Positions 12,525 to 36,444 of a stretch of 39,910 bases of DNA are shown in pieces; positions within the stretch are counted from its first letter, which is position 1; each line of letters begins with the position of its first letter. This DNA is from an uncultured Oscillospiraceae bacterium (GTDB taxonomy: Bacteria; Bacillota; Clostridia; Peptostreptococcales; Anaerovoracaceae): positions 2,547 to 42,456 of the forward strand of contig CAZCTS010000001.1 in assembly GCA_964501635.1 (NCBI GenBank), written 5' to 3'. The notes beneath the pieces are model-generated. The model was not told where the DNA came from and made no database searches. It saw only the letters and a list, made by a program, of their open reading frames with translations. The position numbers and the translations under genes were made by a program.

Positions 12525-13919
12525 TCAGTCCATTCGAAAAGCGGACTGCAGATATTCCCGGATCCAGCTGTGCTCCGTGTCCCTGCGGCTGTCGTAGACG
12601 ACGCTGCCGTTCAAGATGGTCATCCAGGCCTGTGGCGGGCTTTCGCTTTGGATCCCGGGGTCCTGCTCAAACACGGCCAGATCCGCCCACTTCCCGGCTT
12701 CGATGGTGCCCGTTTGTCCGGAAAGGCCAAGCTGCTCAGCTCCTCGAATCGTGTGTTTTTCCAGCATAGCCTGGGCGGAGCGGTTTGAAGGATCCTCGTC
12801 GCCGGGAAAGTATTCGTAGACATCGGCGCTCAGAATGGCAGAGCGTTCTTCCTCTGAAATCTGCTCCTTGTGCGCGACGGCGAAAGAAGATTTTTTATAG
12901 GAGGCCTTCAGCTCGGACAACAGGGCCAGGGCTGAGACGGCGGCGGCGTGATCCAGGGCGGTGATCCGAATGTGGTAGCCTTTGTCCGCGGCCAGGGAGC
13001 ACAGGCTCTTCAGATAGGACTCGCTCATGAAATGGCAGCTGTCCTGGGCGCTGCTGACGTGGACGCACAGGGTGTTGAACTGTATCAGGCCTTTCAGTTC
13101 GGCGCAGGCAGTGCTTTTCTGAGCCATCTGATGGAGGACCAGGCGTTCGGGAAGGGGCGCATTCAACAGAAGAGATCCAAAATACCGCTGCTTCAGCAAG
13201 TCTTCCTGGTAAGCGTCGACCAGCAATTCCCGGTAAATACTTTCGAAGTGACCAAAGGACGGAAGGACGAATTCTCCCGTAAAGCCCCTTTGAGCCAGGC
13301 TGTACGCGTGCACGGCCAGGTTCTTTTGCAGGGCAGCCATATCTGCGGACAGCAGGACCGAAGTGACCAGGGCCGGCGTGACTGCGGGCATGTCCAGTTC
13401 TTCGGCTTCTTTGGCCACGGCCTCCGCCGCCGGCGTGTTGAGGATCATGTGGTGCCCGTCGCAGGCCACCAGGACGGCGGGCTTATCCAAAGCCGCCTCG
13501 TTCAAGGCCTGCCGGATGTCCGGAATGTCTCCTTCCGCCACAGCGGTCGGATCGTAGCCGTAGGCCAGATATCGCTCCTCCGCCGGATGGTCCGCAATAT
13601 AGGTGAGGACCGCAGAGAGGAGCGTGTCTTTCGTCATGCGCTCTGAAAGAGCCAGGTATTGATCCTCGAAGACCCAAGGGATAGGATCGCTGTGGAGATC
13701 CAGCCATCCGGGCGTCAGGAAACGTCCTTCCAAGTCCACCACCAGGGTCTGCCCTGTGATCAGAGGCTCGATCGCCGCCCGGTCTCCCACGGCCAGGATT
13801 CTTCCTTCCCCGCAGGCCACCGCCTCGGCATGCGGAAGATCCGGATCCATGGTCCGGACGAAACCGTTGACGAGAACCAGGTCCGCGGATGTTTTTTTCT
13901 TGAACAGTCCAAACCCCAT
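12525..13919 (-). CDS. amidohydrolase-3 (YtcJ-like) family protein with non-canonical first metal motif
   Basis: Taken from ORF 12525..14183, with the start moved to ATG 13919 (the minus strand reads AAAGGAGGAAGCGCTTT-ATG). The N-terminus is LVLVNGFVRTMDP...AVACGEGRILAVGD...VVDLEGRFLTPGWLDLHSD and the C-terminus is GTIEAGKWADLAVFEQD, which is the amidohydrolase-3 layout. The usual HxH reads HSD (13694-13686). Confidence 0.75.
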   Translation of the reverse strand: MGFGLFKKKTSADLVLVNGFVRTMDPDLPHAEAVACGEGRILAVGDRAAIEPLITGQTLVVDLEGRFLTPGWLDLHSDPIPWVFEDQYLALSERMTKDTLLSAVLTYIADHPAEERYLAYGYDPTAVAEGDIPDIRQALNEAALDKPAVLVACDGHHMILNTPAAEAVAKEAEELDMPAVTPALVTSVLLSADMAALQKNLAVHAYSLAQRGFTGEFVLPSFGHFESIYRELLVDAYQEDLLKQRYFGSLLLNAPLPERLVLHQMAQKSTACAELKGLIQFNTLCVHVSSAQDSCHFMSESYLKSLCSLAADKGYHIRITALDHAAAVSALALLSELKASYKKSSFAVAHKEQISEEERSAILSADVYEYFPGDEDPSNRSAQAMLEKHTIRGAEQLGLSGQTGTIEAGKWADLAVFEQDPGIQSESPPQAWMTILNGSVVYDSRRDTEHSWIREYLQSAFRMD

Positions 13920-14025
13920 AAAGCGCTTCCTCCTTTGAATGGTACATATTATGCGGTCACAAGTCCTGTTTGTCAATGTGGAAGGAGATATGTTATACTT
14001 GAAACACTTTGAGGAGGTGACTGAT

Positions 14026-23225: not shown

Positions 23226-24353
23226 GTGAGTTATATCGGTGAAACACTGGGCAATTTGCTGCGGCAGACCGCTTTTCTCAACCTGAGCCCGGGCAATCTG
23301 CTGATGGTGGCGGTCGCCTGCGGCTTCCTGTACCTGGCCATTGCCAAGGGCTATGAGCCGCTGCTGCTGGTCCCCATCGCTTTCGGCATGCTGCTGGTGA
23401 ATATCTATCCCCCGATCATGAGCGAAAGCGGCTTGCTCCACTATTTTTACTTGCTGGACGAGTGGGCGATCCTGCCGTCCCTGATATTCATGGGGGTGGG
23501 CGCCCTGACGGACTTCGGGCCGCTGATCGCCAATCCCCAAAGCTTTTTGCTGGGCGCCGCAGCCCAGTTCGGCATCTATGTGGCCTACATGGGCGCCATG
23601 CTCCTGGGCTTTGACGAAAAGGCCGCCGCGGCCATTTCCATCATCGGGGGCGCCGACGGCCCCACATCGATCTTTTTAGCCAGCAAGCTGGGCCAGGGCG
23701 CCCTGATGGGGCCCATCGCGGTGGCGGCCTACTCGTATATGGCCCTGGTGCCCATCATCCAGCCGCCCATCATGAAGGCCCTCACAACAAAGGAAGAGCG
23801 CATGATCAAGATGGCGCAGCTTCGCCACGTGAGCAAGCTGGAGCGGATCTGCTTTCCCATCGTGGTCACCATCGTAGTCTGCTCGATCCTGCCTTCCACC
23901 ACACCCTTGGTAGGCATGCTGATGCTGGGGAATCTGTTCCGGGAAAGCGGCGTCGTGCGCCAGCTGACGGAAACTGCGTCCAACGCCCTGATGTATATCG
24001 TCGTCATCCTGCTGGGCACGTCCGTGGGCGCCACCACCTCCGCGGAAGCGTTCCTGAACTGGTCCACGATCAAAATTGTGGCGCTGGGCCTTTTGGCCTT
24101 TGCTTTTGGAACCGCGGCCGGAGTGGTTTTGGGCAAGGTCATGTGCAAACTCAGCGGCGGCAAGGTGAACCCGCTCATCGGCTCGGCCGGCGTTTCCGCC
24201 GTCCCCATGGCGGCCCGGGTTTCCCAAAAGGTGGGCGCCGAAGCGGATCCGACCAACTTTTTGCTCATGCACGCCATGGGACCCAATGTGGCCGGGGTCA
24301 TCGGCACCGCCGTGGCGGCGGGCACGTTCATGGCCATGTTCGGGGTCGAGTAA
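23226..24353 (+). CDS. Na+-translocating decarboxylase beta subunit (OadB/MmdB/GcdB family)
   Basis: GTG 23226 follows GGAGGA. The 375-aa polytopic protein has typical family stretches (LLLVPIAFGMLLVN, IGGADGPTSIF, GSAGVSAVPMAARV). Confidence 0.85.
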   Translation: MSYIGETLGNLLRQTAFLNLSPGNLLMVAVACGFLYLAIAKGYEPLLLVPIAFGMLLVNIYPPIMSESGLLHYFYLLDEWAILPSLIFMGVGALTDFGPLIANPQSFLLGAAAQFGIYVAYMGAMLLGFDEKAAAAISIIGGADGPTSIFLASKLGQGALMGPIAVAAYSYMALVPIIQPPIMKALTTKEERMIKMAQLRHVSKLERICFPIVVTIVVCSILPSTTPLVGMLMLGNLFRESGVVRQLTETASNALMYIVVILLGTSVGATTSAEAFLNWSTIKIVALGLLAFAFGTAAGVVLGKVMCKLSGGKVNPLIGSAGVSAVPMAARVSQKVGAEADPTNFLLMHAMGPNVAGVIGTAVAAGTFMAMFGVE

Positions 24354-24370
24354 TGTACGAGGAGAATGGA

Positions 24371-25783
24371 ATGAAACCAATCGAAAAGAAGCCCGTCAAA
24401 ATCACCGAGACCATACTGCGGGACGCTCACCAGTCCCTGATCGCCACCCGCATGAGCACGGAGGATATGCTCCCGATCATGGAGAAAATGGATCAGGTGG
24501 GCTATTATTCCGTGGAATGCTGGGGCGGCGCCACCTTTGACACATCCCTGCGCTTCCTGAAGGAAGATCCCTGGCATCGCCTGCGGCTCCTGCGGAAAGG
24601 CTTTAAAAACACCAAGCTGCAGATGCTGTTGCGGGGGCAGAATATCCTGGGCTATCGCCATTATGCCGACGATGTGGTGGCTTATTTTGTACAAAAATCC
24701 ATCGCCAACGGCATCGACATCCTGCGGATCTTCGACGCCTTCAACGATCTTCGAAATCTGGAGACCGCGGTGCGCACCACCAAAAAAGAGGGGGCTCATG
24801 CCCAGATTGCCGTGTCCTACACCCTGGGAGACGCCTATACGCTGGCGTACTGGAAGGATCTTGTCCGGCGGATCAGCGATATGGGGGCGGATTCCATCTG
24901 CATCAAGGATATGGCCGGACTGCTGCTGCCCTATGCGGCGGAGGAGCTGGTGCGGGAGATCAAAAGCATCGTGGATATCCCCATCGATGTTCACAGCCAC
25001 TGCACCAGCGGGGTGGCGCCGATCTCCTACTTGAAAGCCATCGAGGCCGGATGCGACATCATCGACACGGCGATGTCACCCTTCGCCATGGGGACCAGTC
25101 AGCCCGCCACGGAGATCATGGTGGAAACGCTGAAGGGCAGCCCCTACGATACCGGCATGGATCAGAAGCTGCTGGCCGAGATCGCGGACTATTTTAGGCC
25201 CTTCCAGGAAAACGCGCTGGAAACCGGCCTCCTGAATCCCAGAATGATGGGCGTGGACATCAAGACTCTGCTGTATCAGGTCCCGGGCGGCATGCTGTCC
25301 AATCTGGTTTCCCAGCTGGCCGAGCAGGGCGCATCCGACAAATATTACGAAGTGCTGGCTGAGATCCCAAGGGTGCGAAGGGAACTGGGCGAACCGCCCC
25401 TGGTGACGCCTTCCTCCCAGATCGTGGGCACCCAGGCTCTATTCAATGTGCTTACAGGGGAGCGTTACAAGATGGTCACGAAGGAGACCAAGGCGGTCCT
25501 CCTGGGGGATTACGGCCAAACCGTAAAGCCCTTTGACCCGGAGATCCAGAAGAAGGTGATCGGCGAGGCCGTGCCCAAGACCTATCGCCCTGCGGACGAT
25601 CTGGCCCCGGAGCTGGACCGGCTGAAGCAGGAGATCGCCGAATGGACGCAGCAGGAGGAGGACGTATTGTCCTACGCCTTGTTTCCCCAGGTGGCCCTGG
25701 ATTTCTTCCGCTATCGAAAAGCCCAGCAGGATGGGATCGACCTGTCCCTGGCGGACACGGAAAACGGCGCCTACCCGGTATAG
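24371..25783 (+). CDS. oxaloacetate decarboxylase alpha / transcarboxylase 5S-type carboxyltransferase, without biotinyl domain
   Basis: Taken from ORF 24143..25783, with the start moved to ATG 24371 (GAGGAGA at 24359-24365). It has a TIM-barrel CT signature: ITETILRDAHQSLIATRMSTEDM, YSVECWGGATFD, LLRGQNILGYRHY, CIKDMAGLL. The protein ends at about 470 aa with no AMKM motif. Confidence 0.85.
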   Translation: MKPIEKKPVKITETILRDAHQSLIATRMSTEDMLPIMEKMDQVGYYSVECWGGATFDTSLRFLKEDPWHRLRLLRKGFKNTKLQMLLRGQNILGYRHYADDVVAYFVQKSIANGIDILRIFDAFNDLRNLETAVRTTKKEGAHAQIAVSYTLGDAYTLAYWKDLVRRISDMGADSICIKDMAGLLLPYAAEELVREIKSIVDIPIDVHSHCTSGVAPISYLKAIEAGCDIIDTAMSPFAMGTSQPATEIMVETLKGSPYDTGMDQKLLAEIADYFRPFQENALETGLLNPRMMGVDIKTLLYQVPGGMLSNLVSQLAEQGASDKYYEVLAEIPRVRRELGEPPLVTPSSQIVGTQALFNVLTGERYKMVTKETKAVLLGDYGQTVKPFDPEIQKKVIGEAVPKTYRPADDLAPELDRLKQEIAEWTQQEEDVLSYALFPQVALDFFRYRKAQQDGIDLSLADTENGAYPV

Positions 25784-25841
25784 ATCGCGGGCGTCATAAA
25801 AATCATATTCCAACAGACATTTTGAGAAGGAGCGTAGGACC

Positions 25842-26234
25842 ATGAAAAAAGAAATCATCCCCACCACCAAAGCGCCGGAACCGCTGGGCCCCTATTCGAA
25901 CGTCGTGAAATTCGGAAATCTGCTCTTCATCTCCGGCATGGCTTCGGAAGACGCAGCCACGGGCGAAATCCTCCACGGCACCGTCAGGCAGCAGACCGAA
26001 AACATCATGAAGAACATCAAGGCCATTCTGGAGGATGTGGGCAGCGGGATGGATATGGTGCTTAAATGCAGCATCCACATGACAAAACAGGAGTACTTTT
26101 CAGAAATGAACCAGGTCTACGCTTCTTACTTTAAAAAAGAAGAGGGCTATCCCGCCCGCGTGACCACCTTCAACTCGGAGATCTATGACGGACTGGACGT
26201 GGAGATCGACGTGATCGCCGGCATCGAAGCATAG
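25842..26234 (+). CDS. ridA: RidA/YjgF-family reactive intermediate (enamine/imine) deaminase
   Basis: 130 aa with APEPLGPYSNVVKFGNLLFISG and PARVTT...VEIDVIA, the canonical RidA ends. Confidence 0.85.
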   Translation: MKKEIIPTTKAPEPLGPYSNVVKFGNLLFISGMASEDAATGEILHGTVRQQTENIMKNIKAILEDVGSGMDMVLKCSIHMTKQEYFSEMNQVYASYFKKEEGYPARVTTFNSEIYDGLDVEIDVIAGIEA

Positions 26235-26257
26235 GCAACAGGAACAGGCAAGACAAT

Positions 26258-26285
26258 AAAAAGCCCGGGCAGCGCCCGGGCTTTT
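26258..26285. terminator. bidirectional rho-independent terminator
   Basis: AAAAGCCCGGGC-AGC-GCCCGGGCTTTT between convergent ridA and the glutamate synthase-like gene. Confidence 0.8.
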
Positions 26286-26297
26286 GAACGATGCGGA

Positions 26298-27689
26298 TCA
26301 AGCCGGCATCAGTTCTTCGTCGATGGCTCTGGCGGCGCATTTCCCCGCGCCCATGGCCAGAATGACCGTGGCGGCGCCGGTCACGGCGTCTCCGCCCGCA
26401 TAAATGTGGTCTCTGCTGGTCTTGCCCGAGGGCTCCTGGGCCACGATGCCGCCCCATTTCTGGGTCTCCAGACCTTTGGTGGTGGATTTGATCAAAGGGT
26501 TGGGGGAGGTGCCGATGGCGATGATCACCGTGTCCAGCGGAATGGTCCATTCGGAGCCTTCCACGGGGACCGGCCGTCTTCTGCCGGAATCGTCGGGTTC
26601 GCCAAGCTTCATTTCCAGGCACTCCATGCCGGTGACGTTCAGCTTTTCGTCACCCAGGATACGGACCGGATTGTTCAGCAGTTTGAAAATGATGCCTTCT
26701 TCTTTTGCGTGCTCCACTTCTTCGGCTCTGGCGGGCAATTCCTCTTCGGACCTGCGGTAGACGATATACACCTCTTCGGCGCCCAGACGCTTGGCGCAGC
26801 GGGCTGCGTCCATGGCCACGTTTCCGCCGCCCACCACGGCGACCTTGCTGCTGTTTTTGATCGGCGTCGCGGCGTCAGGCTGATAGGCCTTCATCAGATT
26901 GACTCGGGTCAGATACTCGTTGGCGGAGTATACGCCTTTGAGATTCTCTCCGGGAATGTGCATAAAGGTGGGAAGGCCGGCGCCGGATCCGATGAATACC
27001 GCCTCAAATCCCTGTTCATCCATCAGTTCGTCGATGCTGGTGGATTTTCCGATGACCATGTTCGTCTTGACCTCCACGCCCAGCTCTTTCAGGGCGTCGA
27101 TCTCCTTGCGGACGATCGCCTTGGGCAGCCTGAACTCGGGAATGCCGTAGACCAGCACGCCGCCGGGGGTATGCAGCGCTTCGAAAATCGTTACATGGTA
27201 GCCCTTTTTCGCCAGATCGCCGGCGCAGGTGAGGCCTGCGGGACCCGATCCGATCACAGCGACCTTGTGGCCGTTGGAGGCGGGCCGTACAGGTTTTTCT
27301 TCGGTGTTCTGGATATGCCAGTCGGCCACGAAGCGCTCCAGGCGTCCGATGCCCACGGATTCGCCTTTGATTCCCCTCACACAGCGTTCCTCGCATTGAG
27401 TCTCCTGAGGACACACTCTGCCACATACAGCGGGAAGGGAGCTGTCTTTGGCAATGATTTGGTAGGCCTCCTCGTAGGCGCCCTGGGCGGTTTTCTGGAT
27501 AAAGGCGGGGATGTCGATCTCCACCGGACAACCCGCGATGCAGGGCTTGTGCTTGCAGTTGAGGCAGCGGGCGGCCTCGTCCAGCGCTTGCTCCTCGGTG
27601 TATCCGAGGGCGACTTCCTGGAAGTTGCCGTTCCGGATGTGGGGGTCCTGGGAAGGCATTTCGTTTTTCTTCAGCGACAGGTTGGCCAT
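26298..27689 (-). CDS. nfnB: NADH-dependent reduced ferredoxin:NADP+ oxidoreductase large subunit (GltD-like, 2x[4Fe-4S] + FAD/NADPH)
   Basis: 463 aa. It has N-terminal Cys clusters (CLNCKHKPCIAGCP, CGRVCPQETQCEERC) and two Rossmann motifs (VAVIGSGPAGL, VAVVGGGNVAMD). It is paired with a PyrK-like subunit directly upstream. Confidence 0.8.
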   Translation of the reverse strand: MANLSLKKNEMPSQDPHIRNGNFQEVALGYTEEQALDEAARCLNCKHKPCIAGCPVEIDIPAFIQKTAQGAYEEAYQIIAKDSSLPAVCGRVCPQETQCEERCVRGIKGESVGIGRLERFVADWHIQNTEEKPVRPASNGHKVAVIGSGPAGLTCAGDLAKKGYHVTIFEALHTPGGVLVYGIPEFRLPKAIVRKEIDALKELGVEVKTNMVIGKSTSIDELMDEQGFEAVFIGSGAGLPTFMHIPGENLKGVYSANEYLTRVNLMKAYQPDAATPIKNSSKVAVVGGGNVAMDAARCAKRLGAEEVYIVYRRSEEELPARAEEVEHAKEEGIIFKLLNNPVRILGDEKLNVTGMECLEMKLGEPDDSGRRRPVPVEGSEWTIPLDTVIIAIGTSPNPLIKSTTKGLETQKWGGIVAQEPSGKTSRDHIYAGGDAVTGAATVILAMGAGKCAARAIDEELMPA

Positions 27690-28532
27690 TTATTTCACCT
27701 CCATCTTGTAGAGATTACAGACGTCTTCGTGGCATTTGATCTCAAAATCCCGATACATCATCCCTCTTTGCATCGCCTGGTCAAAATCCACCTGGTGACC
27801 GTCGAAATCCGGTCCGTCCACGCAGGCGAACTTCGTTTCTCCGCCCACGGTCAGGCGGCAGCAGCCGCACATGCCGGTCCCGTCGATCATGATGGAGTTC
27901 ATGCTTACCACAGTCTTTACATTATATTGCTTTGTGAGCAGGCTGACGAATTTCATCATGATGACCGGCCCGATGGCGATCACTTCGTCGTATTGCTCTC
28001 CCGCATCCAACAACGCTTTGAGCGCGTCGGTCACCAGTCCTTTTTCGCCGTAGCTGCCGTCGTCGGTCACCAGGACCATCCGCTGGCTGGCGGCCCGGAA
28101 TTCGTCTTCCAGGATGACCAGGTCCTTGGTTTTAAAGCCGACCACCGCGTGGACGATGGTCCCCTGCTGGTGGAGTTTCTTCGCCACGGGGTAGGCGATG
28201 GCGCAGCCCACGCCGCCCCCAACGACCGCGACCTTTTTAAGCCCCTCCGTGTGGGAGGGAACGCCCAAGGGGCCCACCAGGTCTTGAAGAGAATCCCCCT
28301 CCTCCAGATGGTTCAGCGCTTCGGTCGTGGCACCTACGATCTGGAATATGATGGTGATGGATCCCTTCTGCCGGTCGAAATCAGCGATGGTCAGGGGGAT
28401 CCGCTCCCCGTTCTCGTCCACGCGCAGCATGACAAACTGGCCGGGTTCGCCTTTTTTGGCGATGGGCGGCGCGTCGATCTCCATGAGGGTGACAGTGGGA
28501 TTTAAATTGACTTTCTTTAATATTGTATACAC
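27690..28532 (-). CDS. nfnA: NfnA-type small subunit (PyrK/sulfide dehydrogenase-like FAD/NAD-binding, [2Fe-2S])
   Basis: Taken from ORF 27690..28595, with the start moved to GTG 28532 (the minus strand reads AAGGAGGATCGAATC-GTG). The N-terminus is VYTILKKVNLNPTVTLMEIDAPPIAKKGEPGQFVMLR. The C-terminal Cys cluster is GTGMCGCCRLTVGGETKFACVDGP. Its stop abuts the nfnB start. Confidence 0.8.
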   Translation of the reverse strand: MYTILKKVNLNPTVTLMEIDAPPIAKKGEPGQFVMLRVDENGERIPLTIADFDRQKGSITIIFQIVGATTEALNHLEEGDSLQDLVGPLGVPSHTEGLKKVAVVGGGVGCAIAYPVAKKLHQQGTIVHAVVGFKTKDLVILEDEFRAASQRMVLVTDDGSYGEKGLVTDALKALLDAGEQYDEVIAIGPVIMMKFVSLLTKQYNVKTVVSMNSIMIDGTGMCGCCRLTVGGETKFACVDGPDFDGHQVDFDQAMQRGMMYRDFEIKCHEDVCNLYKMEVK

Positions 28533-28684
28533 GATTCGATCCTCCTTCGCGATCCTTCCCTGGCGCTTGTGTCGCAAGAATGATGTGGGGACCAAGGAAA
28601 ACTAACTAAATAATATTATCACAATGCATGAGGGATTAAAACCCCCTGTTAATGTAAATAAATTACAAATAAGGCAATATATCC

Positions 28685-28716
28685 TTGACAAATCCGCTAA
28701 ACTTGTGTAATATAAT
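28685..28716 (+). promoter_or_regulatory. sigma-A-type promoter of the Tad-like locus
   Basis: TTGACA (28685-28690), a 17-nt spacer, then TAATAT (28708-28713), which overlaps TATAAT (28711-28716). It lies in a conspicuously AT-rich 150-bp divergent intergenic region. Confidence 0.6.
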
Positions 28717-28744
28717 GTTAAATTATGGAAAATGGAGACAAGGC

Positions 28745-29383
28745 ATGAAATGGAGAACCACCCTGGGCATCTCGCTGATCGTCCTGAGTTTGGCCCTTAT
28801 GCTCTTCTGGGAATTCCGGGGCAGGGATGTCCTAACAATGACGCAGATATTGACAGCCTCCCGGGATATCCTGCCCGGGGAAAGGCTGCTGGCCCAGGAT
28901 GTGGCAAGCACTCCAGTTCCTCCGGAAAATGTGATCCAGGGCGCGTTGGCGCCAAGCGATGCAAAACTGATCCTGGGGCGCAACGCCATTTATCCGCTGT
29001 CGGCCAGGCAGCAGCTGAGCGCCTCGTATTTCAAGGAGGATCAGGATATCCTGCGGCGGAACGAATCGATATTCCCCATCCGCCCCCAATGGATCGGATC
29101 CATGAGCGGCGCGGTCCGGCCGGGGGATGTGGTCAGTCTGGTCTCTTCTTCGTCGGAGGAAGGCCTTGGGATGTATCGAGTCGCCTATGTGATGGACCAG
29201 GCGGGCGGCCTTCTGGAATGGCCGGCAGCGGACGCTGGGGATCTGCTTGGACGCAGCCGGGGCCCCGATCCGGCCGCCAGTCTGGAGATCGTCTGCACCT
29301 TGGAGGACTACCTGAATATTTTGCGAAGCCAGACAGCGGCAGCGCCCAAAGATCTCATCGTGTTTATGGAGGGCGGGTTATGA
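28745..29383 (+). CDS. CpaB/RcpC-like pilus assembly protein (TM anchor + SAF-like domain)
   Basis: Taken from ORF 28685..29383, with the start moved to ATG 28745 (GGAGA 7 nt upstream). It has an N-terminal helix TLGISLIVLSLALMLFW followed by TASRDILPGERLLAQDVASTPVP, the usual SAF-domain opening of CpaB proteins. Confidence 0.6.
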   Translation: MKWRTTLGISLIVLSLALMLFWEFRGRDVLTMTQILTASRDILPGERLLAQDVASTPVPPENVIQGALAPSDAKLILGRNAIYPLSARQQLSASYFKEDQDILRRNESIFPIRPQWIGSMSGAVRPGDVVSLVSSSSEEGLGMYRVAYVMDQAGGLLEWPAADAGDLLGRSRGPDPAASLEIVCTLEDYLNILRSQTAAAPKDLIVFMEGGL

Positions 29384-30183
29384 GCGGGATCTATACCTTT
29401 TTCGGGGTAGACAACAAATGCGGCACCTCCATGGTGTGCCAATCCGTAGCCGAATACATCGCCGGAGAAATGCCGGACTGGAATGTGCTCCTCATCCATA
29501 CCGAAGGGGATGTGGGCACCGGGTATGCAGCCTGCTCGGGTGAATCCACCGGGCGGATCCGGCCGGGATTGTCCAAAGGCTTGTTCGACCCCCAGGAGGT
29601 GGTCGCGCGATCCCAATGGCAGAAGAATCTTCATTTTATCGCCGGCGCGGACCCTCTGGAGGAAGAAGGGAAATATCACCCGGATCTGTCGAACGCGCTC
29701 CTGCGGCGTCTCAAGAACTGCTTCGATCTGATCCTCTGCGACAGCGGCAGCCAAATTGAAAACGGTTTGGCTCTGGGGTCTCTGTTTGCCGCGGACGGGA
29801 TCTTTCTGGTCATGGTCCAGGCCGAAGGAGCCGTTCGCAGATTCGAGCGACTGATCCGTTTGTACCTGAAGCTCAATGTGTCGACGATGGGTTGTTTGAT
29901 CAACCGCTTTCGCGAGAAAAGTCCCTATACACCGGCTTATCTGCGGGAACGGCTGGACCAGTTCCCCGGCGCGTTTTACACCGTGGGAGAATCCCCTATG
30001 GGCATTCTGGCCGAAACGGAGGGTCGCTCTCTCATGAATTACCGGGACCGGGCTTTTCGAAAAGATGTCTGCCGGATCGGCGACCTCATCCTGGCCGACG
30101 CGGGAGCGCAAAGGGTCCCGGAGAAAGGCAGGGCATCGTGGAACCTTTTGAAATTCAAGAATACATCAAGAATCGAAGCGTAG
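29380..30183 (+). CDS. TadZ/CpaE-like ParA/MinD-fold protein with degenerate Walker A
   Basis: This is the 3' two-thirds of listed ORF 28732..30183. ATG 29380 overlaps the upstream stop (ATGA), with GGAGGG 6 nt upstream. The P-loop position reads FFGVDNKCGTSMV instead of KGGxGK(T/S). LILCDSG is Walker-B-like. Confidence 0.6.
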   Translation: MSGIYTFFGVDNKCGTSMVCQSVAEYIAGEMPDWNVLLIHTEGDVGTGYAACSGESTGRIRPGLSKGLFDPQEVVARSQWQKNLHFIAGADPLEEEGKYHPDLSNALLRRLKNCFDLILCDSGSQIENGLALGSLFAADGIFLVMVQAEGAVRRFERLIRLYLKLNVSTMGCLINRFREKSPYTPAYLRERLDQFPGAFYTVGESPMGILAETEGRSLMNYRDRAFRKDVCRIGDLILADAGAQRVPEKGRASWNLLKFKNTSRIEA

Positions 30184-31577
30184 AAGCGGCAGAGCTCCCC
30201 CTTGAATCGAGCGCAGCGTTTGAATTCGGCGATCTCTGCGATCAGATCAAAGCCGCTTTTTTCAAGGAGTGGGAGAGAGAAGAGAATCCCAAGTCCATGC
30301 TGGACATCCAGAAGCGGGCCATCATCGGCTACGAAAAGGAGTCCGCCTATTTTAAGGATCGAATCGGAGACCTGCTTCGGAGGATGGGCGCCTGGGACAC
30401 CCCCCATCCTCCCTGGTACACGACGCTGACGGAAGGAGTCTATCAGGAAAACTGGGGGCTGGCAGGCATCAGCGAATGGTTTGGCCCGGATTTTTCCAGC
30501 AGCAGCTCGGCAAAAATTATCGGGGAGCGCATCTACTTTCTTCAAGAAGGGAAAATGGCGCTCAAGCCCCAGAAGATATCCAAGGCCAGAAAAGAGCAGC
30601 TGATCCGGGCATTTCTCCTGTTGAACCCGGAAGAGAGACTGGACAAGACCTATCACGAGACCTATCTGCTGGACGGGACCCGGGTGACGATCTACGCCGA
30701 GCCCATGGCGAAAAAGGAGCAGGCCGCCATCGTGTTTCGCAGGTATATCATTCCGATCCTGAGCTTCGAGGAACAGGCCAGGAGGAAAACGATCCCGGCG
30801 GAGGCCATCCCGTTCCTGCGGCAAATGGTGCAAATCGGATTTAATGTGGTGTTCCTGGGCGCTGTTCGAACAGCCAAAACCACTTTTCTCACCACCTGGC
30901 AGAGTTATGAGGACCCCTCGCTGGAAGGGGTCATGGTGGAGACGGATCCGGAGATCCCCTTGCATCGGATCCTTCCCCAAGCGCCTATACTTCAGCTTCT
31001 CGCCGATGGGCAGGAGTTGTCTAGGATATCCAAAAGCCTGCTTCGAAGCGACGCCGACTACTTCATCCTGGCGGAGGCAAGAGACGGCATCGCTTTGAAC
31101 ACGGCGGTCAAGATCGCCGGAAAAGGAACGAAACGGATGAAGCTGACGTTCCATTCCGGCGATCCGGATCAATTTCCCCTGGAGGCGGCAGAGGAGATCG
31201 TCCAGGCTACCGGAGGGGATCTGTCCATGACCATGAGAAGGGTGGCCTCCGGCTTCGATTATCTGTTTCATTTTATTCAACTGTCCGACAAGCGGGAGAA
31301 GCGGCTGAACAGCATTCGCGAATTGAACTGCAGCGAGGATGGCCGGATCACCGTCTCTCCGATCTGCGCCTACGACGCGCTGGACGACAGCTGGATGTTC
31401 TACGACCGGGTCGGAGCGCAGAAGCGCGGCTACGCGCTCACATCGGACCCCAAGGCGTTCCAAGATATGCAAAAGTGCCTGAGGGAGCTCGCCGCCGCTT
31501 CACCCATACGCAATGGACCGGCGCCGATAAAGGAGAAGGAAACCCATGGACCTGTTCCGCATGGATCTGTTGATTGA
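30138..31577 (+). CDS. TadA/CpaF-like secretion ATPase (GspE/VirB11 superfamily)
   Basis: In frame with ORF 29892..31577. I propose GTG 30138 as the start; ATG 30298 is the alternative. Motifs: Walker A variant FLGAVRTAKTTFL (30858-30884), ETDPEIPL (Asp-box-like), DYFILAEARD (Walker B-like), MKLTFHSGD (His-box-like). Confidence 0.65.
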   Translation: MEPFEIQEYIKNRSVEAAELPLESSAAFEFGDLCDQIKAAFFKEWEREENPKSMLDIQKRAIIGYEKESAYFKDRIGDLLRRMGAWDTPHPPWYTTLTEGVYQENWGLAGISEWFGPDFSSSSSAKIIGERIYFLQEGKMALKPQKISKARKEQLIRAFLLLNPEERLDKTYHETYLLDGTRVTIYAEPMAKKEQAAIVFRRYIIPILSFEEQARRKTIPAEAIPFLRQMVQIGFNVVFLGAVRTAKTTFLTTWQSYEDPSLEGVMVETDPEIPLHRILPQAPILQLLADGQELSRISKSLLRSDADYFILAEARDGIALNTAVKIAGKGTKRMKLTFHSGDPDQFPLEAAEEIVQATGGDLSMTMRRVASGFDYLFHFIQLSDKREKRLNSIRELNCSEDGRITVSPICAYDALDDSWMFYDRVGAQKRGYALTSDPKAFQDMQKCLRELAAASPIRNGPAPIKEKETHGPVPHGSVD

Positions 31578-32493
31578 ACTGCTGATATTTTTCGTGTTCG
31601 CCGCGGGCCTGGCCTGCCTGTTTCTGGAGCATATCCGGCTGCTGCGTCTGCACTGGCGGATGCGAAGACGGCTCCGCCGCGCGAAGAAGCGAAGCCGGCA
31701 GCTCTCTCCGCCTTTGCGCTATGCCCGAAGGCTTCTGCAGGCAAGCTTTCAGAATCCGCCGGGGGAGAATGTGTTTCTTTTGCTTCTGGCTTTGATTTTT
31801 CTGTTGGTCATGTTCCTTGCGCTTCAAAGCTTTTCGCCCGGCACAGCTCTCCTGTTTTCCGGTATCGCCACTTCGCTTCCGGTTTTTCTGCTGGCGGTCC
31901 GCCTGGAGATCCGCAGAAAGAAAGGCAGCCGGGAAGGCTTGCCTCTGGTGTCGGAGCTGCACCGTCATTACTGGGCCAATCACCGGAACATTTATTCGGC
32001 GATGGAGGCCACGCTGAACGGAAACGGGACTTTCCCGGTATTCAGGAAATTGCTCTTTCAGCTCCTTCTGAAACTGCGCAGCACCGGGAATCCCGCGGAG
32101 ATCCGGGAAGCGGTGGACCAGTTTTCCTTTTCGGCGGGCACGGTGTGGGCCAGGATGCTGGGCTTGTGCATCCGGATGGCCTCGGAAAGCGGCAGCGACA
32201 TTTCGCTGGGCCTTCAGGACATCTCCAGCCAGCTGAGCGAGGCCAACACCCGGGCCGAAGAGCGGAGCCGGATGAACAGCGAGGCGCTTCGAATGACGGT
32301 CTTTCTGGTGCCCGCTCTCTACGCCGGGACCATGGGGATCGCCATGTACTATCTGGGCCTGGAGCCGGTCCGCCTGATGCGCAACCAGTTTGCCACGCCG
32401 GAAGGACTATTGTTCTTTATGATCATTCTGCTGTTTTTCGTGATCAATCTGGCGGTCATGGAGTTGCTTCAGAATCAAAAACTGGATTACTGA
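31546..32493 (+). CDS. TadB-like (GspF/T2SSF-type) inner-membrane platform protein
   Basis: 315 aa, with AAGGAGAAGGA upstream. It overlaps the ATPase gene by 32 nt. The layout is an N-terminal TM, two central TMs, a cytoplasmic helical region and two C-terminal TMs, as in TadB. Confidence 0.6.
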   Translation: MDLFRMDLLIELLIFFVFAAGLACLFLEHIRLLRLHWRMRRRLRRAKKRSRQLSPPLRYARRLLQASFQNPPGENVFLLLLALIFLLVMFLALQSFSPGTALLFSGIATSLPVFLLAVRLEIRRKKGSREGLPLVSELHRHYWANHRNIYSAMEATLNGNGTFPVFRKLLFQLLLKLRSTGNPAEIREAVDQFSFSAGTVWARMLGLCIRMASESGSDISLGLQDISSQLSEANTRAEERSRMNSEALRMTVFLVPALYAGTMGIAMYYLGLEPVRLMRNQFATPEGLLFFMIILLFFVINLAVMELLQNQKLDY

Positions 32494-32505
32494 CAGGAGA
32501 GGGTC

Positions 32506-33153
32506 ATGAGCTTGGGCGTGTTGTTTTTAACAGATGTGTTCTTTTGGGCCGGCTGCTATTTTCTCTATCGGAGAGAATCGCTGCGCCTTGCGGAAAGGGC
32601 CGCCCGATGGGGGCGGTCGGCCGGAGCGAAAGCCCGTTCCAGCGGCGCGGCCAAAGGTCTCCGCAGTTATGCCCGCCACCGCAGAAGAAATGTCCGGGAG
32701 AGGGAGTTGAGCGAGTGTCTGGCGTATATGCAGAATATGGTGGCGCTCGGAAGAGGGAGCGCCATGAGCGGAGAATTGCTGCTGGCCGAGCTGGCGGATC
32801 TCTGCGACAGCCTGCAGAGCGTCTTCTGGGAAATGTCCCACAGGCTGCGCCTGTGCGACGGAGAAGGGGCGGAAACGATTTTTTGCCGGGCTTTCGAACA
32901 GGATTATGCGCAGGATGTGGCCAAGCTGTTCATCGAATGGGAACGCATTTCACCCCAGGAACTGGGCAGCACGGTGGGCGCCTACCGGAACCTTCTGCTG
33001 CAAAAGAGGCGGACCCGGCAAAAGAACAGGGATGAATGGATGAGCGACCTGGCCTATTTCCCCGTGGTGGTCAACGCCATGGCCGTGCTCCTCAACTTCA
33101 TTTATGTGGCCTATTTTATTGAACAGCGGAATTCGTTAATGGGTATTCTTTAA
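32506..33153 (+). CDS. TadC-like (short GspF-type) membrane protein
   Basis: 215 aa, with AGGAGAGGG upstream. The layout is an N-terminal TM, a helical cytoplasmic domain and a C-terminal TM (YFPVVVNAMAVLLNFIYVAYFI). The assignment rests mainly on position and topology. Confidence 0.5.
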   Translation: MSLGVLFLTDVFFWAGCYFLYRRESLRLAERAARWGRSAGAKARSSGAAKGLRSYARHRRRNVRERELSECLAYMQNMVALGRGSAMSGELLLAELADLCDSLQSVFWEMSHRLRLCDGEGAETIFCRAFEQDYAQDVAKLFIEWERISPQELGSTVGAYRNLLLQKRRTRQKNRDEWMSDLAYFPVVVNAMAVLLNFIYVAYFIEQRNSLMGIL

Positions 33154-33174
33154 GATACCGGGAAGGAGTGGAGC

Positions 33175-33336
33175 ATGAAACAGTTGATCGTACTGGTGGC
33201 GACCGTGATGCTGGGCATCGCCATCGGAGGGATGGTGATGGGTTTCAACGGCCAGGCAGACCAGGTCCGGGACAGCGTATCAGGTAATATTAACGACATT
33301 ATCACAGAGTACGACGCCACAGCCGCAATCGATTGA
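33175..33336 (+). CDS. 53-aa single-helix pilin-like mini-protein (no canonical Flp motif)
   Basis: Not in the ORF track because it is shorter than 60 aa. GGAAGGAG lies 6 nt upstream. My own translation: MKQLIVLVATVMLGIAIGGMVMGFNGQADQVRDSVSGNINDIITEYDATAAID. Confidence 0.55.
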   Translation: MKQLIVLVATVMLGIAIGGMVMGFNGQADQVRDSVSGNINDIITEYDATAAID

Positions 33337-33345
33337 GAAGACGCT

Positions 33346-33510
33346 ATGAAACAGTTGATCGTGATGGTCGCGGCGCTGGCCCTGGGGCTGCAGTTGTTTG
33401 CCATGATCGCCGGAAGCGGGGAGGACAGCGTGGCCTCCACGCTGCGCCAGGTTTGGGTGCATGAGATCGAAGCCAGAAGGATGGAAGAAAGTCCGGAGGG
33501 GGAGCTATGA
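33346..33510 (+). CDS. 54-aa single-helix pilin-like mini-protein, paralogue of the preceding gene
   Basis: My own translation: MKQLIVMVAALALGLQLFAMIAGSGEDSVASTLRQVWVHEIEARRMEESPEGEL. Its first 17 nt are identical to those of the previous gene. Its stop overlaps the next start (ATGA at 33507-33510). Confidence 0.5.
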   Translation: MKQLIVMVAALALGLQLFAMIAGSGEDSVASTLRQVWVHEIEARRMEESPEGEL

Positions 33511-33935
33511 AGCAGTTTCTGGTCCTGCTGGCGGCGCTGCCGCTCCTGCTGATCTTCCTCCTGCAATTCTCCCTGGATCAGATGAACCACGCCAGGATAG
33601 GGCTCTTGTCGGATTGTGTGTATGTGGCAAGAGAACAGGCCAGGCAGAAGGGCTGCTTCACCACGGAGATCTGCGAGGATCTTCGGACAAGGATCTCGTC
33701 CATCCTGGATATCGATCCGGCATTGGTGGACATCCAGGCCACGGACACGCCAAGGTATCGGCTGCTGGGGGATGCCTGGATGGACGGGGGTTTCGAAAGA
33801 GGACTTATATACTACAAGGTCTCGGTCCCGATGGGACAGATCATGGCGGGGCCCAGGCTCTTCGGCATCCGGGAGGACGACAACCGTCTGGTCTTTTCCA
33901 TCGACAGCTTTACGGCCAGCGAATTATTGCCCTGA
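33507..33935 (+). CDS. TadE-like pseudopilin-type protein
   Basis: 142 aa. The N-terminus MKQFLVLLAALPLLLIFLLQFSL resembles the hydrophobic TadE N-terminal segment (..ALVLPVLLLL..), but without the preceding leader and Glu. Confidence 0.55.
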   Translation: MKQFLVLLAALPLLLIFLLQFSLDQMNHARIGLLSDCVYVAREQARQKGCFTTEICEDLRTRISSILDIDPALVDIQATDTPRYRLLGDAWMDGGFERGLIYYKVSVPMGQIMAGPRLFGIREDDNRLVFSIDSFTASELLP

Positions 33936-33977
33936 TCCCACGCCGGGCAGGACTCAGGCTTCGGGTGGAGAACTGTC

Positions 33978-34448
33978 ATGAAGATATTTGTCGTTTTTTT
34001 GGCCATCCTGCTCCTCAATGTGAGCTATTTGAGCCAGTCGGCGGACCTGGACCGGTATTCATTGCTCCAGCGCCAACTGAAGGTCCTGGCTGAAGAAGGG
34101 GCTTGCGGAGCGGCGCTGTTCCGGGATGAGGACGAATACGCTCTCGGAAGGCTGTGCGTGGACCGGCAGGCAGCGGAGGCGTATCTAGATTTTCTGCTTG
34201 CAAACCAGAGAAGCCTGACGGAGACGGATCCCTCTGCCACGGTCGAGGGGCATATAGAAGTGTTCGACGATGCGTCAGGATACGAGGACGCAGGCCGCTA
34301 CGGCATTTCCGGCGCCAGTCCCGCAGTGGTGGTGGAACTGGAATGGAGCGGAGAGGATCTGTTCCGGCTTCCCTTTGTTTCGGTCACCCGTCTTCGGCGA
34401 AGCGCCACGTATCAATGGGCCGGAGGCTTGACAAGCGCCCTCGAATAG
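33978..34448 (+). CDS. hypothetical TadF/TadE-like N-terminally anchored protein
   Basis: 156 aa, with GGTGGAG upstream. It has an N-terminal helix MKIFVVFLAILLLNVSYL. It is the last gene of the cluster. I recognise no family. Confidence 0.5.
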   Translation: MKIFVVFLAILLLNVSYLSQSADLDRYSLLQRQLKVLAEEGACGAALFRDEDEYALGRLCVDRQAAEAYLDFLLANQRSLTETDPSATVEGHIEVFDDASGYEDAGRYGISGASPAVVVELEWSGEDLFRLPFVSVTRLRRSATYQWAGGLTSALE

Positions 34449-34455
34449 TTATAAT
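34428..34455 (+). promoter_or_regulatory. consensus sigma-A promoter for the thrS leader
   Basis: TTGACA (34428-34433), a 16-nt spacer, then TATAAT (34450-34455). It is embedded in the 3' end of the preceding ORF. Confidence 0.7.
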
Positions 34456-34461
34456 GAATCT

Positions 34462-34690
34462 GTTAAATTGAAATACAAAAAAAGCGATGACGAGAAAGGC
34501 CGCATTCGCCCTGCACAAGAGAAGGACTCCCAGGCTGGAAGGGTCCGCAGGGAAATGATTGGCTCACCCTCTCCGAGCTGCACCCGAGGAGGGCTGCCGG
34601 CAGAAACTGTCGTTAAGCAAAAGAAGTATTCCGTTTGGGTGGAACCGCATTTTTGCCCCAAACACCTGAGGGTGTCTGGGGTTTTTCATT
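34462..34690 (+). promoter_or_regulatory. T-box riboswitch (threonine-specific leader of thrS)
   Basis: The stem I opening is AGCGATGACGAGAAAGG, with an AGAGA bulge (34518-34522) and a distal CTGGAAGGG loop. The T-box sequence is GGGTGGAACCGC (34637-34648). The antiterminator pairing GTTTGGG (34633-34639) with CCCAAAC (34657-34663) competes with the terminator CCCCAAACACC (34656-34666) / GGTGTCTGGGG (34671-34681) plus TTTTT. The candidate Thr specifier is ACU (34606-34608) in GAA-ACU-G. Confidence 0.8.
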
Positions 34691-34704
34691 TCAGGAGGAA
34701 GCAA

Positions 34705-36444
34705 ATGGCAAACATTCGATTCGAAACGTTGGAAGACAAGAAGGCGCTGTGGCACACATCGTCTCACATCATGGCCCACGCGGTGCAGCGTCTCTTTCCC
34801 GAGGCAAAATTCGGCATAGGTCCCGCCATCGACAACGGGTTCTACTATGATATCGATTTGGATCACAGGTTTACCGATGAAGATCTTCTGTCAATCGAAA
34901 AAGAAATGGCCGGGATCATCAAAGAGGACCTGCCTTTGGTATGCAAGGCTATGAGCAGGGACGCGGCCTTGAAATTCATGGCGGACCGGGGAGAGCCCTA
35001 CAAGGTCGAACTGATCAACGATCTGCCCCAGGACGTGCAGATCACGTTCTATGAGCAGGGCGATTTCGTGGACCTGTGCGCCGGTCCCCATCTTCCGTCC
35101 ACGGGGGGGATCAAAGCCGTCAAGCTGCTCAGCGTTGCCGGAGCCTACTGGCGGGGCAGCGAGAAGAACAAGATGCTCCAGCGGATCTACGGGATCACCT
35201 TCCCCAAGAAGTCCATGCTGGATGAATATCTGCTGAAGCTGGAGGAAGCCAAGCGGCGGGATCACCGGAAGATCGGCAAGGAAATGGACCTGTTCGCTAT
35301 TATGGACGAAGGCCCGGGTTTTCCGTTTTTCCTGCCCAGGGGGATGATCATCCGCAACCAGCTGGAAGCCTTCTGGCGCAAAGCCCACGCCGACAGAGGC
35401 TACGACGAGATCAAGACGCCTCTGATCCTGAACGAGGAACTGTGGCATACCTCCGGACACTGGGATCACTATAAAGAGAATATGTATTTTACGAAGATCG
35501 ACGACATGGATTACGCCATCAAGCCCATGAACTGCCCGGGATCCCTGCTGGCCTACAAACGCAAGATGTACAGCTACCGGGACTTTCCCATGCGGATCGC
35601 CGAGCTGGGCCAGGTGCACCGCCACGAGCTTTCGGGCGCCCTCCACGGACTGATGCGGGTGCGGACCTTTACCCAGGACGATGCGCATATCTATATGCTC
35701 CCCGAGCAGACGAAGGACGAGCTGAAAGGGGTCATCCAATTCATCGGCTACATTTATGGGATTTTCGGCTTCCATTACCGCATTGAACTGTCCACCCGGC
35801 CGGAGAACTCCATGGGCAGCGCCCAGGAATGGGAATCGGCGGAACAGGCCTTGAAGGAAGCCATGGACGAGTTGGGCATGGCGTATAAAATCAATGAAGG
35901 GGACGGCGCGTTCTACGGGCCGAAGCTGGATTTCCATCTGGAGGACAGCATCGGCAGGACCTGGCAGTGCGGCACGATCCAGCTGGATTTCCAGATGCCC
36001 CAGCGCTTTGACATCACCTATGTGGGCGCAGACGGCGAAAAGCATCGCCCCGCCATGATCCATCGGACGATCTTCGGCAGCATGGAGCGCTTTATCGGGA
36101 TCCTGATCGAACACTTCGAAGGGAAGTTCCCCCTGTGGCTGGCCCCCACGCAAGTAAAGCTGCTCACCGTAACGGAAAAATTCAACGATTTCGCCCAGGG
36201 CTTAAAAGAACAGCTGGCGGCGGAAGGCTTCCGGGTGGAACTGGACGGCCGCAACGAAAAGATCGGCTATAAAATCCGGGAAGCCCGCAACGCCAGAGAC
36301 TCCTATCTGATCGTCATCGGCGAAAAGGAAGAGGAGTCCGGGCTCTTCCCGGTCCGCTCCAGCAAGGAGGGAGAACTGGAACCCATGACGATGGAACAGT
36401 TCATCCAACGCCTGCATCGGGAGATCAACGAAAAAGCCTATTGA
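34705..36444 (+). CDS. thrS: threonine--tRNA ligase, short form lacking the N-terminal TGS domain
   Basis: Taken from ORF 34468..36444, with the start moved to ATG 34705 (AGGAGGA 5 nt upstream, immediately after the T-box terminator). Landmarks: editing-domain HTSSHIMAHAV, class II motifs FRDFPMRIAELGQVHRHE, GLMRVRTFTQDDAHIY, GAFYGPKLDF, and a C-terminal anticodon-binding domain. Confidence 0.9.
   Translation: MANIRFETLEDKKALWHTSSHIMAHAVQRLFPEAKFGIGPAIDNGFYYDIDLDHRFTDEDLLSIEKEMAGIIKEDLPLVCKAMSRDAALKFMADRGEPYKVELINDLPQDVQITFYEQGDFVDLCAGPHLPSTGGIKAVKLLSVAGAYWRGSEKNKMLQRIYGITFPKKSMLDEYLLKLEEAKRRDHRKIGKEMDLFAIMDEGPGFPFFLPRGMIIRNQLEAFWRKAHADRGYDEIKTPLILNEELWHTSGHWDHYKENMYFTKIDDMDYAIKPMNCPGSLLAYKRKMYSYRDFPMRIAELGQVHRHELSGALHGLMRVRTFTQDDAHIYMLPEQTKDELKGVIQFIGYIYGIFGFHYRIELSTRPENSMGSAQEWESAEQALKEAMDELGMAYKINEGDGAFYGPKLDFHLEDSIGRTWQCGTIQLDFQMPQRFDITYVGADGEKHRPAMIHRTIFGSMERFIGILIEHFEGKFPLWLAPTQVKLLTVTEKFNDFAQGLKEQLAAEGFRVELDGRNEKIGYKIREARNARDSYLIVIGEKEEESGLFPVRSSKEGELEPMTMEQFIQRLHREINEKAY

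Follow-up and report, generated by a model that had tools for sequence, protein, structure and literature searches.

The stretch of DNA considered here (the window) comprises 39,910 nucleotides of contig CAZCTS010000001.1 from an uncultured Oscillospiraceae bacterium of the family Anaerovoracaceae, and our subject is a run of four small genes in it, termed P1 to P4, that form the last part of a nine-gene operon (Table 1). We favor, at a probability of about 0.58, the explanation that monoderm Firmicutes possess a very divergent type IV filament machine of the Tad type whose subunit set is P1–P4, and that these subunits are made in their mature form without a class III leader. Subunits of type IV filaments are defined by a class III signal peptide, and prepilin peptidase is among the conserved core proteins of the machines that assemble them (PMC4471445). 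P1–P4 are real and conserved genes that lack such a leader, share an N-terminal module, and sit in the flp-tadE-tadF position of a Tad-like operon; that they polymerize and need no peptidase, and what each of them does, we infer.

The class III leader is a hydrophilic segment of 6–26 residues that ends in a glycine at position -1 and is cut off by prepilin peptidase; this glycine is absolutely critical for cleavage, and the mature N-terminus of a type IV pilin consists of about 21 mostly hydrophobic residues that form the α1N segment (PMC4471445). The N-termini of P1, P2, P3, and P4 read, in that order, MKQLIVLVATVML, MKQLIVMVAALAL, MKQFLVLLAALPL, and MKIFVVFLAILLL. As the initial annotation had described, there are four open reading frames at these positions that all open with MK(Q/I) and pass directly into a hydrophobic helix. 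Only Met-Lys precedes the helix, without Gly(-1), and no G/xxxxE processing motif was found in any of P1–P4. Residue 5 is Ile, Val, or Leu across all four families rather than Glu, and the conserved Gln3 is the sole conserved polar residue at the start of the helix in P1–P3. The hydrophobic conserved stretch covers residues 4–24 in P1, 4–23 in P2, 4–19 in P3, and 3–19 in P4, as expected of α1N. Alternative in-frame starts further upstream, a point raised together with the original observation, do not exist: the nearest in-frame stop lies 7, 3, 14, and 14 codons 5' of the ATG of P1, P2, P3, and P4, respectively, and no ATG, GTG, TTG, CTG, or ATH codon is found between this stop and the ATG in any of the four. 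Because no start codon is possible 5' of each ATG, a hidden leader is excluded by the sequence. Purine-rich runs resembling Shine-Dalgarno (SD) sequences precede P1, P3, and P4, and that of P2 is weak. The genes are closely packed, with gaps of 21 nt before P1, 9 nt between P1 and P2, -4 nt between P2 and P3 (the stop of P2 overlaps the start of P3 in ATGA), and 42 nt between P3 and P4.

Conservation was assessed with a profile of P3 relatives, which brought up 124 species genomes, and by mapping genes with tblastn; 80 loci from Anaerovoracaceae and related Clostridia were kept. Orthologues of P1 and P3 are present in all 80 loci, of P2 in 77, and of P4 in 79, always in the same order. The nine genes as a whole likewise keep their order: the CpaB, MinD-like, and ATPase genes come first, then those for the two platform proteins, and last the two small and the two mid-sized genes. 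In most loci the ATPase and platform genes belong to the same operon as P1–P4. The MK start followed by a helix, which the initial annotation had proposed to check in orthologues, is universal in these loci; the in-frame stretch upstream of it is short, unconserved, and closed by a stop, and no longer N-terminal extension is conserved. Invariant residues concentrate at the N-terminus: M1, K2, L13, and G14 in P1 (Q3 in 77 of 78 sequences); M1, K2, and G14 in P2 (the last in 75 of 75, with Q3 in 64 of 75 and G23 in 74 of 75); M1, K2, V6, L11, P12, F17, and Q25 in P3; and M1, K2, and D23, together with F7 and K35, in P4.

The first 17 nt of P1 and P2 are identical in the window, as had been noticed at the outset and taken as a sign of tandem duplication followed by rapid divergence. 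That interpretation is not supported. Of 73 loci, only 2 show an identical lead of 17 nt, and P1 and P2 have a median of 5 nt in common at their starts, so the identity is incidental; P1 and P2 are ancient paralogues, both found in at least 77 of the 80 species and similar along the whole helix (hhalign probability 99%, E 1.7e-18, 41 columns). The depth of this paralogy and the rarity of the 17-nt lead led us to reject a recent duplication. The codons for Lys2 and Gln3 vary synonymously between species and, given also the rarity of the nucleotide identity, selection is seen to act on the protein. Median ratios of nonsynonymous to synonymous substitution (dN/dS), estimated roughly by NG86 on a subsample, are 0.40 for P1, 0.33 for P2, 0.24 for P3, and 0.33 for P4. 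By these measures P1–P4 are genuine genes under purifying selection. The P1 family has 251 database relatives of 45–64 residues, and NCBI and JGI already call some of these as genes; entries of greater length reflect upstream ATGs chosen by gene callers, and the extensions are unconserved. The P3 family comprises 299 clusters at 50% identity, almost all of which align from residue 1.

The four proteins have a common N-terminal module. The first 20–22 residues of P1 and P2 are shared with P3 (hhalign about 90%), and the match between P3 and P4 extends over the first 42 residues but is less certain (hhalign 54%). A shared N-terminal helix combined with differing C-terminal parts suggests the pattern of pilins that enter one filament. 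In P1 the N-terminal half is invariant and the C-terminal half variable, which suggests the exposed surface expected of a major subunit; P2 keeps a C-terminal motif (S..S.V..VW..EI..RT). Counted from Met1, Gly14 of P1 and P2 falls where mature type IV pilins have their conserved, helix-breaking Gly14. The only PDB sequence match of the P1 family profile is the α1 helix of an archaeal type IV pilin (8fj5_A, E 0.12), and a few P1 orthologues match N_methyl, Arch_flagellin (three orthologues), and Flp1_like weakly, below threshold. Archaeal type IV pilins (Pilin_N) and archaellins resemble P1 in having a hydrophobic α1 helix followed by G.G, and archaeal pilins often lack Glu5 (PMC4471445). They differ from P1 in carrying a class III leader, which is cut by PibD/FlaK-type peptidases, and the similarity, at the E-value just given, is below significance. 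A 958-bp metagenome contig (P0188) encodes a 106-residue protein in which P1-like and P2-like parts are read through head to tail (..SSGAFNWNWKCVRVIMKQFIVL..); either a natural fusion or a lost stop is possible.

The AlphaFold2 (AF2) model of P3 has a predicted local distance difference test score (pLDDT) of 85.5 and consists of a helix (residues 2–48) and an α/β head with three strands in the order α-β-β-α-β. Type IV pilins have a lollipop fold, that is, an α1 helix of about 50 residues with a β-sheet head (PMC4471445), and the predicted architecture of P3 resembles a pilin-like lollipop of this kind. Curated families capture little of P3 and P4. Neither P3 nor 20 of its relatives have a Pfam match to DUF4320 (PF14208) or TadE (PF07811). 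The Pfam family Tad (PF13400) matches 4 of 40 P4 orthologues below threshold (best E 0.012), and neither the P4 of the window nor the P4 consensus.

The link to conventional pilins comes from a plasmid of Thermoanaerobacterium saccharolyticum, pMU3262, whose locus encodes an RcpC/CpaB protein, an AAA ATPase, a T2SSF protein, an ATPase, a second membrane protein, and three subunits. What it has in common with the window is the CpaB-like gene, the AAA ATPase, the genes of T2SSF type, the ATPase, and then one small pilin followed by a pair of pseudopilins. In contrast to the window, it has one platform gene 5' of the ATPase, and its subunits carry leaders of 10–23 residues and, in two of the three, Glu at +3 or +5, whereas the subunits of the window start Met-Lys at +1 and have Gln in place of Glu in P1–P3. 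The pMU3262 leaders end in Gly (..NPAG/MISVE.., ..NEDG/VYEIVVLIILLPF.., and ..DERG/YFNIF..); the second of these proteins, with a VYE start, belongs to DUF4320 and also matches Pfam TadE. Profile hidden Markov models (HMMs) of P3 and P4 were compared with these proteins, and significance was judged against 2000 composition-matched block-shuffled controls. The P3 HMM matches the DUF4320 protein at 12.1 bits, a score reached by none of the shuffles, with positions 4–88 aligned to residues 15–98. The offset of 11 equals the length of the leader; Met1-Lys2-Gln3 of P3 therefore fall on Val(+1)-Tyr(+2)-Glu(+3), the conserved Gln3 occupying the site of the relative's Glu, and Pro12 falls on Pro(+12). 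The P4 HMM matches the 174-residue protein of pMU3262 at 15.4 bits, again above all 2000 shuffles, and D23, Y27, L34, and K35 of P4 coincide with +23, +27, +34, and +35 counted from its Gly(-1). Because the HMM registers match, P3 and P4 start where their leader-bearing relatives start only after cleavage. By alignment, P3 and P4 are distantly homologous to leader-bearing pseudopilins, with Met1 equivalent to residue +1. The match of the P4 HMM to a 163-residue Alicyclobacillus protein is weak (13 of 2000 shuffles scored as high), and matches of the P1 and P2 HMMs to plasmid mini-proteins and leader-type Flp-like proteins are not significant. P1–P4 thus lack the marks of a type IV pilin (leader, Gly(-1), Glu5) and fall outside the curated Tad, DUF4320, and TadE families, yet, so far as these registers indicate, they descend from such proteins and would work as those do.

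The remaining operon genes place P1–P4 in the setting of a filament machine. Tad/Flp systems (TadZ-TadA-TadB-TadC-Flp-TadE-TadF plus CpaB/RcpC), above all those of monoderms, have the same gene set and order as the window: a CpaB-like protein with a SAF domain, a ParA/MinD-like protein, a TadA/CpaF-type ATPase with all its motifs, two platform proteins, Flp-sized subunits of about 50 residues, and two pseudopilin-sized proteins of 140–156 residues. The window differs from them in that its subunits have no leader, Gly(-1), or Glu5, the locus has no TadV, and, among the nine proteins, only the SAF domain passes a curated cut-off. This domain scores 21.5 bits in the window against a Pfam cut-off of 21, and 38.8 bits with the family consensus; the match of the same protein to TIGR03177 pilus_cpaB (4.9e-9) is under its cut-off, and the gene was mapped in 48 of the 80 loci. 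The P-loop of the MinD/ParA-like protein lacks the lysine of GK[ST] (..DNKCGTS.. in the window, GADHKVGTT in the family consensus). By analogy, this protein may bind but not hydrolyze ATP, as has been reported for TadZ.

The ATPase is closest to archaeal GspE-like, CpaF, VirB11, and FlaI chains and to the TadA-family model. Its PDB matches include 2oap (5.8e-5) and CpaF 8rkd (1.1e-4); NCBIfam TIGR03819, of the TadA family, is matched at 8.9e-5 with 21.8 bits against a cut-off of 373, and Pfam T2SSE at E 0.13 by the window protein, or 0.0076 when the consensus is used, with neither score reaching the 24.9-bit cut-off. Its motifs are kept across 54 orthologues: Walker A (G....[A/G]KTT), the Asp box (ETDPE), Walker B (RSDADYFILAEARD), and the His box (TFHSG). 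With its catalytic motifs intact, the ATPase is apparently active. The two membrane proteins that follow are weak paralogues of one another (hhalign E 8.5e-4). That in the TadB position has no family match in a Pfam scan of the window protein, and 2 of 25 orthologues match T2SSF weakly. Among orthologues of the TadC-position protein, T2SSF comes up more often than any other Pfam family (7 of 26, all weak), and the family consensus covers the whole T2SSF domain (5–123 of 125) at E 5.7e-4, with 20.3 bits against a cut-off of 25.2. PDB sequence-profile searches with P3, P4, and both membrane proteins gave nothing meaningful. In a public assembly (locus L081), the whole set of nine is called as genes, and not one of them matches Pfam.

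A SpoIIIA-like sporulation channel was considered, prompted by a weak Spore_III_AB match of the TadC-position protein and by the α-β-β-α-β head of P3. It was set aside as the main explanation on three grounds: the operon includes CpaB and MinD-like genes, T2SSF is matched more often, and the ATPase groups with TadA, VirB11, and FlaI.

Table 1. Features of the operon and the site preceding it, in window coordinates
Feature	Position	Strand	Remarks
Promoter-like site, TTGACA-17-TAATAT	28685-28713	+	10/12 consensus match only; 32 nt 5' of the CpaB-like start
CpaB/RcpC-like protein, N-terminal membrane anchor and SAF domain	28745-29383	+	Pfam SAF, TIGR03177
MinD/ParA-like protein in TadZ/CpaE position, degenerate P-loop	29380-30183	+	TIGR01968 MinD, 4e-6, far under cut-off
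TadA/CpaF/VirB11-type secretion ATPase	~30138-31577 (start approximate)	+	PDB, NCBIfam, motifs
Polytopic membrane protein in TadB position	31546-32493	+	Position; weak paralogy with next gene
T2SSF-like platform protein in TadC position	32506-33153	+	Family consensus against T2SSF
P1	33175-33336	+	53 residues; Flp-sized leaderless pilin-like protein, candidate major subunit
P2	33346-33510	+	54 residues; leaderless P1 paralogue
P3	33507-33935	+	142 residues; leaderless, pseudopilin-like; remote kin of DUF4320/TadE-like proteins
P4	33978-34448	+	156 residues; leaderless, pseudopilin-like, TadE/G-like N-terminus

Searches for a prepilin peptidase and for conventional subunits were negative in these loci. 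The initial annotation had pointed to the absence of tadV from the locus as consistent with subunits that are not processed. The absence stands, and it extends further, with no A24-type GxGDxK motif in the window or in the ~970 kb of sequence flanking the 80 orthologous loci; taken alone, it is weak evidence, because systems often share their prepilin peptidase, and loci often lack one (PMC6668835). The case for no processing rests on there being nothing to cut rather than on a missing tadV. A regular expression for small leader-type genes (G/XXXXEY) found no such gene in the window, nor over about 8 kb in any of the 80 loci, and P1 and P2 are therefore the sole Flp-sized candidates there. The same expression does detect genes in two further loci, L086 and L087. 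In L086, distant P2 and P3 relatives stand beside leader-type DUF4320 and DUF6133 genes. L087, a mobile element that encodes a relaxase and a VirD4-like ATPase, carries (9001–9986, 13815–14009) two tandem leaderless P3-like genes and a canonical, leader-bearing Flp-like gene (..SGEQG/GPNVETIILI..). Since L086 and L087 carry both types, leaderless and processed subunits can coexist.

Leaderless relatives also occur on plasmids. A search of plasmids with the ATPase gave 118 records, of which three, pMU3262 and the two described next, were informative; the window ATPase is 30% identical over 84% of its length to Bacillus thuringiensis plasmid ATPases (E 4e-42). The same nine-gene synteny is found on pHT77 of B. 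thuringiensis HD73 (typed as conjugative) and on Alicyclobacillus pAACI01 (typed as non-mobilizable), where all the genes are labeled "hypothetical". Both plasmids have two mini-genes of 47–54 codons and P3- and P4-like genes, and their subunits are likewise leaderless (MESAISKILL.., MRQIIIGLL.., MRSAIIFAL.., MKWILMALS..). Chromosomal profiles match the pHT77 proteins (Z=1e6) at 6e-21 for SAF, 7.9e-33 for the 378-residue MinD-like protein, 6e-67 for the ATPase, 4.9e-15 for the first membrane protein (323 residues), 6e-4 for the P3-like protein, and 5e-4 for the P4-like protein. On pHT77 (L088, 11689–12606) one protein combines the P4-like N-terminal domain with an M23 peptidoglycan hydrolase; supposing P4 to be a pilin, this fusion would amount to a modular pilin equipped with a wall-cutting enzyme. 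The module adjoins genes for a MobQ relaxase, VirD4, and proteins resembling VirB4 and TrbL, and the annotation of pHT77 lists no prepilin peptidase. On pAW63, a related plasmid of the pXO2 family, the homologous ATPase is called VirB11 and its neighbors are hypothetical (PMC1196294, PMC9673590). This "VirB11" region of B. cereus-group plasmids shares nine-gene synteny and leaderless subunits with the window. pHT77 differs from the window in its adjacent transfer genes and its M23 fusion, whereas the window copy is chromosomal, with glutamate-synthase-like and related genes upstream on the opposite strand, thrS downstream, and no transfer genes seen. On a Gram-negative plasmid, that of Aeromonas sp. 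Ne-1 (H42, NZ_KP738729.1), there is an ATPase that shares 26.7% identity with 87% of the window ATPase (E 2e-31) and is nearer to it than the canonical CpaF matches.

If P1–P4 are filament subunits, P1 would likely be the major Flp-sized subunit, P2 a conserved small paralogue, and P3 and P4 TadE/TadF-like minor pilins with globular heads; P2, P3, and P4 might prime or tip the fiber. Translation would begin at the residue equal to +1 of a processed pilin, so that no cut by prepilin peptidase would be required, and Lys2 would act as the positive-inside signal that sets an N-in/C-out topology. The ATPase and the two platform proteins would pull the helices from the membrane and stack them through the shared N-terminal helix. 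P2–P4 (and, with less consistency, P1) conserve an acidic residue at 23–26, with which Lys2 of a neighboring subunit could pair. On conjugative plasmids the fiber would aid mating and carry the wall hydrolase. A broader proposal, offered tentatively and at somewhat less than even odds, is that this would be the first type IV filament lineage whose subunits are made mature and polymerize without prepilin peptidase; it would span the chromosomes of Anaerovoracaceae-like Clostridia and the plasmids of the B. cereus group and Alicyclobacillus, and on the conjugative ones it would be a Gram-positive mating pilus with an M23-bearing minor pilin.

Several points weigh against a fiber built of P1–P4. 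The likeness of P3 and P4 to leader-bearing proteins is weak (12–15 bits) and comes from one plasmid locus. Pfam and NCBIfam scans of P1–P4 of the window and of individual family members gave sub-threshold matches only, and consensus queries did no better. A Foldseek search of the PDB with the P3 model found no match at E <0.3, hence no pilin. The AF2 model of P4 has the same layout as that of P3 at low confidence (pLDDT 59.9), the model being shallow because the homologue search gave only 3 matches. The absence of Glu5 is awkward for the packing of a canonical filament core, where the charge of Lys2 would need burial or pairing, and the MKQ-type proteins of L086 and L087 may serve a role other than that of bulk fiber subunit. 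The fiber, its exposure at the surface, and the mature N-terminus are predictions from sequence.

The alternative with the most in its favor, which we nevertheless regard as unlikely, is that P1–P4 descend from pilins but no longer polymerize, having become bitopic membrane accessory parts of the machine, with the fiber subunit, if any, encoded elsewhere. Such parts could be a static stub, a piston, a PilN/PilO/GspM-like alignment complex, or an anchor for wall-active modules, and the pHT77 fusion of a P4-like domain to M23 fits anchoring. Lys2, the uncleaved N-terminus, and the missing Glu5 would favor retention in the membrane, but it would then be hard to explain by unrelated roles why the extreme N-terminus of all four is invariant and why P1 and P2 keep Gly14. 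The head of P3 after its long helix recalls ferredoxin-like or ring-building periplasmic domains, yet Foldseek with the P3 model returned no PilO, GspM, or ring-building match. The presence of leader-bearing Flp-like and DUF4320 genes next to distant P2 and P3 relatives in L086 and L087 also favors this alternative; in the 80 chromosomal loci, however, there is no other pilin candidate within about 8 kb. The register of Met1 with +1 of processed homologues and the fast-evolving C-terminus of P1, like an exposed surface, also speak against a purely accessory role. The initial annotation had left the choice between unprocessed pilins and small membrane accessory proteins open. The pilin side of that choice has gained support from the in-register homology of P3 and P4, the shared module, and the P3 model, while the assembly of a fiber without a peptidase is a step that we infer.

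Two other explanations carry far less weight. Processing might be hidden, the N-terminus being trimmed by a prepilin peptidase encoded elsewhere or by another protease such as signal peptidase I. The frequent sharing of prepilin peptidases, noted above, is in keeping with this idea, but only two residues precede the helix, with no Gly or Ala at -1, and the register with processed homologues leaves nothing to remove. Sec signal peptides were rejected for P1–P4, as the hydrophobic stretches are too long (about 20 residues) and no AXA-type site follows them. Hidden processing is accordingly very improbable. That P1 and P2 are untranslated and that the starts of P3 and P4 are miscalled is hardly credible: P1 and P2 are indeed shorter than 60 residues and the SD run of P2 is weak, but both proteins are conserved across the loci as counted above, the Lys2 and Gln3 codons vary synonymously with dN/dS well below 1, the P1 relatives in databases include called genes, and no alternative start exists.

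Should P1–P4 prove to be filament subunits that need no peptidase, they would be an exception to the universal rule of a class III signal peptide plus an A24 peptidase. Pilin homologues that start at +1 would mean that a pilin can do without the leader and its cleavage, a single Lys might then suffice for membrane targeting, and the system would be a natural one in which to ask what the leader, N-methylation, and Glu5 do. It would also give a first functional reading to the "hypothetical" genes beside the "VirB11"-type ATPase on conjugative plasmids of B. thuringiensis and B. cereus, for which a pilus was not considered (PMC1196294, PMC9673590). The operon itself, conserved in more than 100 species, is nearly invisible to Pfam and NCBIfam. 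Loci without a peptidase are already known and have been explained by sharing (PMC6668835); leaderless pilins appear to be new, in that a literature search found no report of leaderless or peptidase-independent pilins, and nothing relevant on DUF4320 or on the Bacillus-plasmid Tad-like module as a pilus.

Some loci depart from the usual arrangement. In L020 and L021 (7670–8885), from two species, P1–P4 stand alone, flanked by a serine dehydratase gene and a pseudouridine-phosphate glycosidase gene, and the 8 kb upstream contain no machine genes; because the cluster stands without machine genes there, P1–P4 behave as a separable module. L057 (1812–9092) has an insertion of about 4.4 kb between the two membrane-protein genes, and P2 follows P3 instead of preceding it.

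The operon has housekeeping genes around it: thrS follows it in the window, and in L081 it comes after prpC-prkC-rsgA-rpe and about 3 kb ahead of thrS. In the window, the last codons of P4 are overlapped by a perfect sigma-70 consensus (TTGACA-16-TATAAT, 12/12; 34428–34455), which presumably drives thrS. The leader that follows (34456–34700) has a T-box-like GGGTGGAACCGC as well as a hairpin with a T-run that resembles a terminator; an Rfam search over 28000–35000 returned no T-box, even at E 0.1, and no other RNA family. Upstream of the operon (23226–28595), translations judged by eye resemble the beta and alpha subunits of oxaloacetate decarboxylase on the + strand, and a pair resembling the glutamate synthase small chain and ferredoxin-NADP reductase on the - strand; these neighbors are unrelated to the operon.

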